Origin: Eledone cirrhosa
Lineage: Eukaryota
Reading direction: 5' to 3'
Length of the DNA stretch: 64,000 nucleotides
Assembly: GCA_964016885.1 (NCBI GenBank)
Contig: OZ024751.1
Span: 52,018,001-52,082,000 of the forward strand
Positions 25,289 through 30,961 of this stretch are shown one piece after another. Position 1 is the first letter of the stretch. Each line of letters begins with the position of its first letter. Under the pieces are notes generated by a model. That model made no database searches and was not told the DNA's origin. It worked only from the letters and a program-made list of their open reading frames with translations. A program made the position numbers and the translations under genes.

Positions 25289-25479
25289 TATGTACATACA
25301 TATATGATCATCATTTTACATTTGTTTTCCATACTAACATAACTTGAATGGATCGTCTCGGTTTGAGATTAGATAAGTTGGAGAACCAGATTTTGCTCAT
25401 TTTAAAAGAATTGCCCCTCTCATTTTTTAAATTAAATATGGAATGATACGCGATGCCCCCCCCCCCCCCCCCCCCCCCC

Positions 25480-25899
25480 GCAGCAGACAGAATGGCGAAG
25501 TCATTTCCCCGGAGGATGGCAAGGGAGACGCGCTGGAAAAACCACTCCAACTCGCAGGGCTCACACATGCGGCTGGCCAGCTCACTGCCTATGGTGGTGA
25601 GTAGGGAGGTAGCCCTAGGGCTAAGGACACCAGAAGTCTCCACTGCCAGGAGTACAACCGCAAAGCTGTCAGAGAGCAACCGGTATTTGAGGAGTTTAGC
25701 CTCCTCAGTCCGACGTGCAGCAGAACCCGGGTTAGTCGCAGACTGCACCAGGTTACGGCTGCAGAAAGTGTCGGTGCAAGTGGCATCCCAGACGAGGGGT
25801 TTGCCACCGCGGAACGGGAAGATGGTCATGCCATCTGGCCTTTTGCCGTCCCCTCGGTCCAGCCCCACCGGTTCGAGCTGGGAAGGGAAGCCTGCAGCG
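25480..25899 (-). mobile_element. Restriction-like endonuclease domain fragment of a CRE-like non-LTR retrotransposon
   Basis: LEPVGLDRGDGKRPDG..W D..K..KY..AVETSG..FFQRVSLAILRGN in ORF 25311-25949. Confidence 0.85.
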
Positions 25900-26680
25900 T
25901 ATATTCCATTTTTGGCACGTTTTGTTTTTATAGCTAGATGCCCATGCAAATACCAACTGCTTTACAGAGTGTATTGGGTGCATTTTATCTTAGCACTAAC
26001 ACTAAAGTTGAAGGTCAACCTCTGCTTTAGCATGGAAAATCGCATTCAAATCACATGTGACAATTTTAAAAAAGGAAGGTCATATAGGGTAAATCAGTCT
26101 TAGATACATTATGACTGAATAAAAGATAAGATGTTTGTGACTGTATATTCTATGATCAGAGCAGTCCTGGGGCTAGAAACAACACCACCATTAAATATAA
26201 CAATAATTGTTTCTACTTTAGGCACAAGGCCAGCAATTACCCAGTACATTACTGGTAACAATAATAGTAACAAAAACTACAACAGCAGCAAAGACTGCAA
26301 TAACAACAACATCAAAAACAGCAGCAGTAACAACTCCAACAAAAGCCCTACAACTACAATAACAACAACAACAGTAACAACAATAACCCTTACAACAACA
26401 ATGCCAACAGTTGCTAAATCAGAGGTTATAGTGAAGGAGATTAAATAAGCAATAGCTGGCTGAGCTAACAGTCCTTTTCTTCATCATTCTTCGCTGTGAA
26501 TAGCAAAAATGTTCGTTAAGTTGAATATTTGATGATGAATACAAGAAGAGGATAAATTGATTAATACAAGTGAATTGTCAACAATAAAAGTGATAAGCTT
26601 GAAAGCTTTCATCAGATGAGATTAAACAAACACATGAAAATACATACGTGTGTGTGTGAGTATATATATATATATATATA

Positions 26681-27021: not shown

Positions 27022-27309
27022 ATATATATATATATATATAATAATAATGAAATTATTGTGTACAGTGCTCAGGTGCACTACAACTCATCAAAGGTGCATG
27101 TATAGTACATAGAATAATGTACAAATGTCAGGAAAATAAACAGTGTATGAGTCATGATATAATAACAATAACAATAATGAAATATTGTGCACAGTGCCCA
27201 GGTGCACCACAACCCATCAAAAAAGTGCATGTACAGTACATAGGGCAATGCACAAACATCAGTAAAATGAACAGTGCACACATGTGTGCATGTGTATGGA
27301 AGGGGCACA

Positions 27310-29984
27310 TCAGGTGTAGTTTTGGCGTATTTCGGGAAGCATGAGTGTCTTAAAGGATGCAGTGTCTCAGCAGCTAACAATTGACGCAGGTAGTTTGTTC
27401 CATGCTTCAGCAACTCTGAGCGTGAAAAAATGTCTGCGAAAGTCATGGGAGCTGTGCTGTTTTCTTATCTTGTAGGCATGTCCACGTGTGTTAGACACAT
27501 GGAGATCAAAGAGGCGCTCAGGGTTGCAGTTGGCGAGATGGTTAAAAACTTTGTGGGTATTCACCAAGTCCATTGCCAGACGTCGGAGCTTCAATGAATC
27601 CATGCCCAGGGAAGCAAGGCGTTCAGAGTATGGTAGGTGTCTGATGGAGGGTATGCGCTTGGTTGCACGTCTCTGAACAGTTTCCAGGAGGTCAATGTTC
27701 CGAGCAAGATAGGGGTTCCAGACTGATGATGCGAATTCCAAGTGTGGTCGCACCATAGCTGTATACAGTTTTAAATAGATGGCTGGAGAGCGGCTAACAA
27801 AGGTCTTGCTGAGTGAGGCCAAGACTTTTTGATGTCAGTGTTGTGGAGGGAGTATGTGGACGCTGGATTTTTCCTTCCAAAATGCATGGTGGTACACTTG
27901 TCCACAGCCAGCTTCAGTTGCCAGTCTGTGATCCATTGCTGCATTGTGTCCAGGTCTGATTGTAGGAAAGAGTTGTAAATTTCAGGATCAGTCCTTTTGA
28001 TTTCAAGGTACAGCTTGATGTCATCTGCATATTTTAGTACCGTGGCATTCTGTAAGTTGGTATCTATGTCATTAATATATGCCACAAACAAAAGAGGACC
28101 AAGAACAGATCCCTGTGGTACACCAGATGACATCTCATATGGTGAAGAATGCTGTCCCAGAACCGTGACTACTTCCTTTCGGCTGAGAATGAAGGATTTC
28201 AGCCAGTTGAAAAGATCATCCCTCACACCCATTGCAGAGAGTTTTGCCATAAGTCTTTTGTGTGGCACAGAATTAAAAGCCTTAGCAAAGTCAAGGTAAA
28301 CAACATCCACCCATGAGCCGCTGTCAGTGATCCGGGTGATGTCCTCAAGGAACTCGATAAGCTGATCACAGCAGCTGGAGTTAGGGATAAATCCAAACTG
28401 TGAGGGCCGGATGAGGCTGTGAGAGCTCCAGAAGTTCCAAAGTGTTTCTCTGACACAGGATTCCATCAGTTTGGCCATACAGCTAGTAAGACTGACTGGA
28501 CGATAGTTGACAGGTGACATGCGGTTGCCCTTTTTGAACAGGGGAATGACACTGGCAGTTTTCCACTGCTCCGGAGTAGCACCATTGCTGAGACAGTATT
28601 GAAAGAAAAAAGAAAGCTGGCGCAAAAGGAAATCCCCGCCACGTTTGAGAAGCAGGTATGTCACACCATCAAGACCAGGGGAGGCATAGTTGCGCTTATT
28701 CTTAAGGTGACGTCGCAACATTGCAGGTGTAAATTCCATAGTTGTTATGGAATTTGATGTTAGAGATGGTGGAGATGGTACATTCTGGTTTTCAACAGTA
28801 AAAATACTTGCATAGCACTCAGCAATGAGTTCTGCGCATTCCTTGGGATTGTCAGTGATCTGGCTTGTGTGGGGATTGCGAAGAGGACCAACTGGAGAGT
28901 GAGGTCTCTGCTTTGAATGAACATATTTCCAGAACACCTTACTGTCAGGATTGGTTGCGATGCACTGTTCAAATTCAAGCACTGCCTTCTTTGTCACTTG
29001 CTTGAGATGATTAGAAGATTTATTCCGCTTTTTTCTGTTGGCATCTGATCTATGCAGTTTATATTCCCGTTCAGCGTTCCGACGTTCTTTCCTGGCAAGT
29101 CGGACCACTGAAGTTTCCCAGATTGCACTTTTGGGGTGGTTATTTTTCCGCTTCCGTGGCACTGATGCTGCACACGCTATCCATATTGAGTCCAGGATGC
29201 TCTGGAGTATAGAGTTCACATCTCCAGAGTTATACATCTCATGCCAGTTTGGGCGCTGTAGCTCAGTGCAGTACAAGTTCCAATCCGCCCTCTTCCAATC
29301 AAAGCAAGCAGATTGGAGATGGCCCTGGTTTTTGTTGCTGCCCTCAAGTGCCAGATTGGCAATGATCATAGCATGATCAGAGTTGCCTAGAGGTTCCTCA
29401 GTAGTACAACTGATAACCACTTCAGGAGTAGTGGTGAAGATCAGGTCCAAAGTGTTGTCACCTCTTGTTGGAGAGGTGACTACTTGTGACCAGTTTGAGT
29501 CCAGCACTAGTTCAAGGAAATCGTTTGCACCCTGTGGCCAACGAAAGGTTTCCCAATCGATCTCAGGATGATTGAAGTCACCTGCAATAAACACATAAGT
29601 GGCTGTTTTCTTGGCAGCAACTCTGAGGATATCGCAAAGCTGTGTGTCCTGATGGTAGTTTGGGGGGCGATAAACAACACCAAGCAGAAGTGTTGACATG
29701 GTCATACGTATGTCACAGAAAAAAACTTCTTCCTGTGATTCGTTCAAATCAACGCAAGGAATTACCGAAAAGTTTGAACGAACGTAGACCATCACACCAC
29801 CACCACGGCGGTTAATGCGGTCCTTGCGGAAAAGGTTGTACCCAGTAATGGTGAAAACCCCATCACAGAGTAAGGAATGTGCCCATGTTTCCGTGACTGT
29901 GATGAAGTCAGGGTCGATGCTTCTGACGTAGGATTCGAACAGATGTATCTTGTTGCATAAACTGCGAGCATTTAATGACAACAA
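27310..29984 (-). pseudogene. LINE ORF2 (AP endonuclease + reverse transcriptase, CR1/L2/Jockey-group type), disrupted by one frameshifting deletion near 27825 and a premature TGA at 27367
   Basis: ORF 27771-29984 has APE motifs (LNARS, VTETW, VYRPP, GDFN, TRGDNTLDL, SDH) and RT motifs (NYRPVSLTS, LDFAKAFNSVPH, GVPQGSVLGPLLF, YADD). The C-terminus continues in ORF 27367-27822 (VRPHLEFAS..W, LETVQRRATK, FFTLRVAEAWNKLP). The frame continues past the TGA to a second stop at 27310. Confidence 0.95.
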
Positions 29985-30040
29985 TTTGTACCCTGCTCGC
30001 AGTTTATGATGGTGTGTAGAGGGTGGCAGGTTGTTCTGGT

Positions 30041-30961
30041 TTAGTTTCCCAGAGTTGTAGCAGTTTTTACATTGCCAGTTATTGCGGGTAGATCACACTC
30101 AGACCAGCTGGTATCTCTCTTCCACGTTTCACCAGCCTTGACAAACCTCCAGATCTGCCCATCATCACGCAGACTGAAACTTTCATCTTGTGCTGAGTTC
30201 CGATTCAAGGAAGCTGCAGCACGTAGTTTTGGACGTACATGGGGTGGTAGGCCTGGGCGTGTTCGGAAGGTAATCCGATTTTCACGCCCAGCTTTGGCAG
30301 AGGCCAGATGATATGAGGTTGCCTCTGCGGGGTCCGAGAAAGACAGCCTGATGAGTCTGGGTTTTGGACCAGGTCGACCAAGGCGGAGGGCACCCTTTGG
30401 GGGAACACAGCCTAGGTCTTTGGCTGAGCTGGCAGCAAATGCCTGAAGATCAGCCTTGTCCTCTGGTACCCCAATGGCAATCACTTCATGGGTAGCAGAT
30501 TCCGCAGTCTTTTCAGCAAGAGGTACAGGGAGATTCTTTAGGAAGGCATGCCGATAAGACCCCTTATTGTGGGGTCCTACCCGAATGCTTGCCTCTATTC
30601 CTGCAACTTCCCTTCTCAGAGCAGAAATCATTAGTTGCAGTTCCGCAAAATCTGTACTGGTCGGTTGTTGTTGCTGCTGCTGCTGCTGTCGTTGTTGGTG
30701 ATGATGATGTTCCTCCACGGGAATGGCAGGGGAGGACACAGTCGCAGGTTGTTGCTGTTGTTGTTGTTGGTGATGATGATGTTCCTCCACGGGAATGGTA
30801 GGGGAAGACACAGTCACCAGTTGTTGGTGTCGAAATGTACTGGGAGTGGAAGACATGGGTTGTTGTTGTTTCTGATGTTCTCCCACAGGAATAGCAGTAG
30901 AAGCCAGTGTCATAGGTTTTTGCCGTTGTTGTTGTATATTTTTTTTTCTCCCACACGCCAC
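30041..30961 (-). CDS. LINE ORF1 protein (Gln/His-rich repeats, coiled-coil-like segment, RLGR RRM-like region); true start uncertain
   Basis: 306-aa ORF directly upstream of ORF2 on the same strand. Contains IAIGVPE and LRLGRPGPKPRLIRLSF, motifs typical of ORF1 in this LINE group. Confidence 0.8.
   Translation of the reverse strand: MACGRKKNIQQQRQKPMTLASTAIPVGEHQKQQQPMSSTPSTFRHQQLVTVSSPTIPVEEHHHHQQQQQQQPATVSSPAIPVEEHHHHQQRQQQQQQQQPTSTDFAELQLMISALRREVAGIEASIRVGPHNKGSYRHAFLKNLPVPLAEKTAESATHEVIAIGVPEDKADLQAFAASSAKDLGCVPPKGALRLGRPGPKPRLIRLSFSDPAEATSYHLASAKAGRENRITFRTRPGLPPHVRPKLRAAASLNRNSAQDESFSLRDDGQIWRFVKAGETWKRDTSWSECDLPAITGNVKTATTLGN

Follow-up and report, generated by a model that had tools for sequence, protein, structure and literature searches.

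A putative -1 frameshift site between ORF1 and ORF2 of a probable CR1-group LINE in Eledone cirrhosa, and its conservation among related elements

The two open reading frames of a young LINE family in Eledone cirrhosa, likely a member of the CR1 group, appear to be joined by programmed -1 ribosomal frameshifting into an ORF1-ORF2 fusion, a reading that is supported by the sequences compared below and to which we give a probability of roughly 80%. In the proposed process, most ribosomes would stop at the TAA that ends ORF1 and yield ORF1p, while in a minority the Gly and Asn tRNAs would slip in tandem one base back on G_GGA_AAC and continue into ORF2, resulting in a fusion that carries the endonuclease and the reverse transcriptase (RT). 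The predicted junction reads ...TTLGN-LNQNN..., and the fusion would measure about 1,350-1,400 aa. Slippage of this kind would set a high ratio of ORF1p to RT, like that of gag-pol. G_GGA_AAC ranks among the most shift-prone sites, with GGA as a tolerated XXX, according to excerpts of PMC5009743 and PMC3542737. The mechanism itself, -1 frameshifting, is a known one, proposed here for a host class in which it is not established.

The junction in the window and the element that carries it

The window is the whole stretch of DNA that was analysed, 64,000 nt of assembly GCA_964016885.1 (contig OZ024751.1, positions 52,018,001 to 52,082,000), and its features are collected in Table 1. Read directly from the minus strand, positions 30060-30041 are CTACAACTCT GGGAAAC TAA. 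ORF1 extends from stop to stop over 30961-30041 (minus strand, 306 aa) and has the C-terminus ...TTLGN, and ORF2 extends from stop to stop over 30092-27771 (minus strand, 773 codons), lies in -1 relative to ORF1 and starts with GKLNQNNL...KLLSLNARS. The original prediction was thus confirmed in holding that ORF1 ends in CTG GGA AAC TAA with the heptamer in register (30052-30041), that the -1 frame runs into the endonuclease motif LSLNARS, and that no in-frame ATG lies between the upstream TGA and the first catalytic motifs; the first ATG of ORF2 (29792-29790) is found 86 codons past the heptamer, 3' of the NARS and TETW endonuclease motifs. The length and the open frame of the linker are maintained in subfamily A and its sister subfamily B. 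A strict in-register heptamer occurs by chance at 26 of 13,181 upstream ORF1 codons of the relatives described below, and the chance of meeting one is about 3% for the 15-codon overlap of the window copy and about 1% for the 5-codon overlap of subfamily B.

Table 1. Features of the junction and of the surrounding element (window positions)
Feature	Positions	Strand	Basis or remark
5'-truncated copy of a young, probable CR1-group LINE (APE + RT type), 3' end (ATT)n	27028..30935	-	blastn against full-length copy L205; Pfam RVT_1, Exo_endo_phos
ORF1, C-terminal part only: Q/H-rich repeats, coiled coil, RRM, CTD	30041..30935	-	
Final -1-frame stop upstream of ORF2 (TGA)	30093..30095	-	limits the overlap to 42 nt before the heptamer; 9 nt in subfamily B
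Putative slippery heptamer G_GGA_AAC	30044..30050	-	in register with the ORF1 frame
ORF1 stop TAA, immediately 3' of the heptamer	30041..30043	-	sequence read
ORF2, endonuclease + reverse transcriptase, -1 frame, broken	27771..30050	-	
Linker of ~20 codons in the -1 frame, slip site to first endonuclease strand, no stop, no ATG	29984..30043	-	
Predicted RNA hairpin, 15-bp outer stem, 35 nt past the heptamer	29956..30008	-	strong only in the youngest subfamily
3' terminal stem-loop region + (ATT)n tail, common to both subfamilies	27028..27095	-	

The window copy is about 98% identical to the full-length copy L205 elsewhere in the genome (blastn). It lacks the PHD-like N-terminus with which full-length copies begin (MGRNN..., ORF1 of 409-457 aa), and its ORF2 has lost about 90 nt near 27824 and meets a stop further on, near 27368. 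Being 5'-truncated and broken in ORF2, it is a dead copy and a non-functional relic of the signal. The family as a whole is young and abundant in the genome, with 1,293 DNA candidates at first look in 3.0 Gb and an intact 957-codon frame in many of the 150 copies scored. In all 20 copies that were fetched, which had been selected for long ORF2 frames, ORF2 is open in -1 for 942-943 codons counted from the slip site, with the first Met at codon 86 or 67.

ORF2 matches PF03372, PF14529 and PF00078, and is 35% identical to an RT protein of Xenopus over 929 aa and 32% identical to one of Pelodiscus, with a similar C-terminal block. Placement in the CR1 group is likely on the strength of these vertebrate matches and of a C-terminal motif that we take to be CR1-like, and the endonuclease tree used below was built without L2 or Jockey references. 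No Rfam match was obtained on two full-length copies. The only close protein match of ORF1 is an Octopus vulgaris protein (76% identity). Full-length ORF1s begin with a Cys-rich, PHD-like region, and the PHD matches in relatives fall under the Pfam cut-off (E 6e-4 to 7e-3). A profile sequence search of the PDB with ORF1 gave a best E of only 0.11, and the best PDB matches of a predicted model of the C-terminal 159 aa (pLDDT 86.6) were human LINE-1 ORF1p (E 4.8e-5). The modelled RRM-CTD therefore resembles the L1-like fold and fits a type IIC ORF1 (PHD plus transposase-22-like coiled coil, RRM and CTD), which belongs to the CR1 and L2 lineages (PMC4120745, in excerpt); the ORF1 architecture of the Eledone LINE matches that of the CR1-group type IIC LINEs described there.

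Several features of individual copies were also recorded. ORF1 contains a Q/H-rich tandem repeat (PATVSSPAIPVEEHHHHQQQ...; window 30640-30930, minus strand), the unit number of which varies among copies. In copy L219 (G000:C4:367.25 Mb), the loss of one base in an A-run upstream of the site has created an open frame of 1,381 codons from ORF1 into ORF2. Copies that are 5'-truncated with an intact ORF2 recur every 30-70 kb over G000:C28:124.7-126.4 Mb (L220, L251-L256), and also occur in C178 and C1185. The C28 region is tandemly repeated in units of about 37.5 kb; the unit has internal tandem repeats and one match to the Rfam Histone3 stem-loop (L255:494-538); a crude motif search of the unit found no histone ORF. 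Elsewhere in the window, a 216-codon frame at 25311-25961 (minus strand) has an RPDG motif and a terminal G-run and gave no Pfam match; it is presumably the 3' end of a retroelement with a restriction-like endonuclease.

Conservation of the site in the genome and in distant relatives

All of the 30 best DNA matches, which were picked by similarity, have an identical heptamer and stop. A search with the flank pattern, leaving the heptamer unconstrained, gave 699 matches in the genome, and the reversed control gave none. Among the first 100 matches listed, 33 belong to one tandem array and 67 are dispersed; 60 of the 67 dispersed junctions retain GGGAAACTAA, and GAGAAAC is common to three of them. 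As copies decay neutrally, these counts show the state of the family and not selection. Subfamily B is about 80% identical to A around the junction and has kept the heptamer. Its -1 frame opens just 9 nt upstream of the heptamer, and entry into ORF2 must therefore fall within a window of five codons that bears the heptamer. Around the site, A and B agree at 34 of 36 nt, which is no evidence by itself, since 13% of windows do as well. Contigs of related organisms, among the matches listed, have changes and in-frame indels upstream and none in the site. The diverged queries P0002 and P0003 found nothing in the same genome beyond subfamilies A and B. The tandem array (G000:C1:135.63-135.66 Mb) repeats a unit of about 890 bp at least 33 times, always with a subfamily B ORF1/ORF2 junction, and is a satellite born from the LINE; in 31 units the site is altered to GGGGAAT.

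The original prediction proposed that conservation be checked across related LINEs, and the outcome was strongly positive at the protein level (ORF1 tails) and at the DNA level (heptamers in the overlap). It also held that an ATG before the APE domain or a different relation of the two frames would speak against it; in the family there is no such ATG, and the frame relation is unchanged. The closest metagenomic relative, L121 (58% endonuclease identity), reads CAG GGA AAC TAG with ORF2 in -1, and has an in-frame ATG two codons before the endonuclease Asn. A contig end from another organism reads CAG GGA AAC TAA. No relatives were found in viral contigs.

At the protein level, 57 ORF1 relatives were taken, one per 50% cluster and mostly of 27-39% identity; 8 that stop short of the terminal W-rich motif were dropped, which left 49. 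All 49 scorable tails, which are 5-42 aa long and otherwise variable and unalignable, have GN (39), KN (5) or EN (5). Shuffling within the tails gave GN in 6.5 on average and in 15 at most (2,000 shuffles), against the 39 observed. In every case, the amino acid ahead of GN can be encoded by a codon that ends in G (S 21, Q 9, P 3, A 2, T 2, V 1, E 1).

At the DNA level, an endonuclease alignment was used to take the best 80 of 487 metagenomic relatives, 12 of which had no callable ORF1 or ORF2. In the 68 callable loci, ORF2 lies in -1 in 51, in +1 in 11 and in frame in 6, and 48 of the 51 have a bounded overlap (3 dropped). From upstream ORF1 codons, 4.1 of these 48 overlaps would be expected to hold a strict in-register heptamer, and 23 do so; when GGA was accepted as XXX, the number rose to 42 (6.9 expected). 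Such locus counts overstate independence, since one clade of the endonuclease tree holds 32 of the 68 loci. With one locus per 60% cluster, the figures are 18 of 29 (2.7 expected) and 25 of 29 (4.6 expected), respectively. The XXXAAAC class, which was chosen after the data had been seen, is present in 40 of the 48 overlaps (1.5 expected); the eight without it include four G-run sites and one UUUAAAU.

The silent base before GAA, AAA, GGA or TTA-AAC fits the slip pattern in 40 of 41 cases in the overlap versus 8 of 30 upstream, and the ratio of AAC to AAT is 41:3 in the overlap versus 30:42 upstream. This covariation at silent sites is the strongest argument for frameshifting, as it is needed for re-pairing of the tRNAs and is not demanded by selection on the protein. 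By these comparisons, the junction is conserved and evidently under selection at the nucleotide level. The near-invariant Asn at the end of ORF1 would also fit a protein motif, with GN, KN or EN serving the ORF1 tail and ORF2 made from a spliced or separately started RNA. However, such a motif leaves the excess of AAC and the matched silent base unexplained. Seven junction-covering contig sets (three distinct RNA-like runs and two others) contained no splice joints, where contigs can show presence and not absence, and the AG dinucleotides in the linker have no conserved pyrimidine tract. We therefore consider this route highly improbable. A splice acceptor in the linker was sought as a candidate, and none is conserved.

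Further regularities were noted in the relatives. Four loci (L134, L146, L173 and L178) have -1 overlaps with TCG GGG GAA or TCG GGG GAC at the position of their relatives' heptamer, possibly a G-run variant of the slip site. In the largest clade (L122-L193), GTG GTA GG follows about 10-15 nt past the heptamer with its silent positions fixed, and in 13 loci of that clade the ORF1 stop precedes the endonuclease Asn codon by exactly 17 nt.

Candidate stimulators and other routes to ORF2

A canonical -1 signal has a structure 5-9 nt downstream of the slip site (PMC3542737, in excerpt). No stem-loop or pseudoknot was found at this distance in the family among predicted folds, made with no dedicated pseudoknot program, and local structure in the relatives was absent on average (mean z -0.51 at +5; 4 of 47 below -2). 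As no 3' stimulator was found at this spacing, the junction is not classed as a canonical -1 cassette. The original prediction had seen CCTGC/GCAGG as the sole, weak downstream stem. That stem is unlikely to be the stimulator: it lies outside the predicted fold, its GCAGG arm is absent from subfamily B, and a stronger hairpin is predicted at 30008-29956 (z -4.55; none of 200 shuffles as stable). The predicted stability of this hairpin falls from about -28 kcal/mol in subfamily A to -13 in B, and to as little as -6 in other copies; its outer stem persists in B with one A-U pair changed to G-C.

Long-range pairing was considered as well. Pairing of the post-slip bases with the 3' tail is not favoured in this family, the tail ranking 3 of 8 as a partner in A and 5 of 8 in B. 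Over 19 loci, the 3' tail ranked first in 6 (1.8 expected), and none of these 6 is from the E. cirrhosa genome. A 9-nt complement between the pre-heptamer bases and the tail is found in subfamily A only, and the best shared long-range partners lie inside ORF2 (best of 719 windows, two subfamilies only). The stimulator may be a delay in termination at the stop next to the site, the hairpin that begins 35 nt further on, or a long-range pairing. The -1 site of Barley yellow dwarf virus (PMC3542737, in excerpt) offers a model with a partly remote stimulator, and differs in that no such pairing was found in the Eledone LINE. In L192, L145, L157, L136 and L137, the bases that directly follow the heptamer complement the element's 3' end, most strongly in L192 (-34 kcal/mol versus a null minimum of -25).

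Reinitiation is the route described for L1 and SART1, the latter requiring a downstream structure (PMC5972666, in excerpt). L1 also tolerates non-AUG codons (PMC1965478), and ATG-independent production of its ORF2 by reinitiation is known (PMC1965478 and PMC5009743, both in excerpt). At the Eledone junction, ribosomes would stop at the TAA and restart at a nearby non-AUG codon with the aid of the hairpin, and the heptamer would signal binding or pausing instead of being a slip site. Candidates for the restart are the CUG some 15 nt further on and the UUG codons ahead of the endonuclease. The CUG with A at -3 is retained in subfamilies A and B, and the hairpin downstream of the junction is strong in A only. 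However, reinitiation does not predict the switching among G_GGA, G_GAA, A_AAA and U_UUA with a matching silent base, nor the position of the site in relatives, which can be as far as 150 codons upstream of the ORF1 stop. The CUG is lost in L121, and the junction has neither a UAAUG nor an AUGA overlap, the sequence being C TAA AC with no AUG for 86 codons. In the relatives, the interval from the upstream stop to the endonuclease Asn is free of ATG in 26 of 40 heptamer loci; the other 14 have one, only within four codons of the Asn in 6 and further up in 8. Taken together, reinitiation is an unlikely explanation. A UGGGA that overlaps the site, which we take to be a TURBS-like motif, was rejected as a reinitiation signal, being not conserved: it is AGGGA in L121 and in the other organism.

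The missing canonical stimulator and the spread of the hairpin from -28 to -6 kcal/mol among copies could also mean that the heptamer is an ancestral relic, too weak here, and that ORF2 arises by leaky or spontaneous slippage. A young family with many intact 957-codon frames is against this, as is the survival of the site next to an ORF1 tail that accumulates substitutions and in-frame indels, and we find the idea very doubtful. Programmed frameshifting remains the preferred reading.

Known systems and other recoding-like junctions

The proposed arrangement resembles that of gag-pol and PEG10, in which an in-register heptamer connects the ORF of an RNA-binding structural protein with the -1 ORF of an enzyme, and the PEG10 heptamer, GGGAAAC, is identical to that of the LINE (PMC2800197, in excerpt). 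In contrast, the LINE is a non-LTR element without a protease to cleave the fusion, its stop adjoins the heptamer, and the pseudoknot or stem at 5-9 nt was not found. Among APE-type non-LTR elements, a -1 frameshift is stated as required for ORF2 of Dictyostelium TRE5-A and TRE3-A (PMC5911963, in excerpt); these belong to another clade and host, and the likeness rests on a review statement that gives neither a slip site nor an experiment. The mammalian L1, silkworm SART1 and Candida Zorro3 elements share with the Eledone LINE a bicistronic RNA, an L1-like RRM-CTD ORF1 and an APE + RT ORF2. In those three, ribosomes reinitiate past the ORF1 stop, at an AUG or close to one, and ORF2p is made as a separate protein (L1 and SART1, PMC5009743 and PMC5972666; Zorro3 added by PMC1965478; all in excerpt), whereas here there is no AUG and the frames overlap on a slippery site.

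We found no report of a slippery site for CR1-group LINEs in the literature searched, while older subscription papers and Repbase entries on CR1 overlaps may already propose frameshifting. A -1 frameshift in a LINE was found stated only for the Dictyostelium TRE elements. The word 'frameshift' is absent from the main text of PMC13343379 (a 2026 survey of CR1) and PMC4120745 and has no match in PMC9115989 and PMC8392823; in the excerpted text of PMC11835228, 'ribosomal frameshifting' is used only of a retrovirus. The route of ORF2 translation is known for few LINEs, and reinitiation is what reviews describe. In most vertebrates, the retrotransposons that dominate are CR1-group LINEs (PMC13343379, in excerpt). 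If the recoding site is conserved in the group, the RT would emerge from translation already joined to a subunit of ORF1p, with consequences for particle assembly, cis preference and host control. Furthermore, ORF2 annotations that begin at the first ATG would cut off the endonuclease.

UGA-CU is a readthrough context, and at the in-frame loci the ORF1 stop is TGA followed by CT in 5 of 6, versus 1 of 16 other TGA stops. A related readthrough context is UGA-CGG (PMC3542737, in excerpt). At 6 of the 11 +1 loci, YCN TTT C (one TTT TAA) occurs within the last 15 codons, versus 6 occurrences in 19,523 upstream codons, and UUU_CGN is a described viral +1 motif (PMC5052127, in excerpt). The remaining one in-frame and five +1 loci look like broken or miscalled copies. 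In the endonuclease tree, the +1 loci form one clade and the readthrough loci sit at three places. As sibling lineages would thus reach ORF2 by three kinds of recoding signal, the fusion product may be what selection keeps. It seems somewhat more likely than not, though less probable than frameshifting in the Eledone family, that the CR1-group LINEs of many invertebrates make their RT as an ORF1-ORF2 fusion by means of the full retroviral recoding repertoire, namely -1 slippage (G_GGA_AAC, G_GAA_AAC, A_AAA_AAC, U_UUA_AAC), +1 shifting at YCN_UUU_C and UGA-CU readthrough. In that case, L1-like reinitiation would be one solution among several and not the rule for LINEs.

The individual loci are as follows. 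The in-frame junctions with a readthrough-like context, TGA then CTA, CTG or CTT, are those of L153, L164, L166, L170 and L185, and the +1 junctions with (C/T)CN TTT C (or TTT TAA) near the end of ORF1 are those of L161, L171, L176, L188, L194 and L198.
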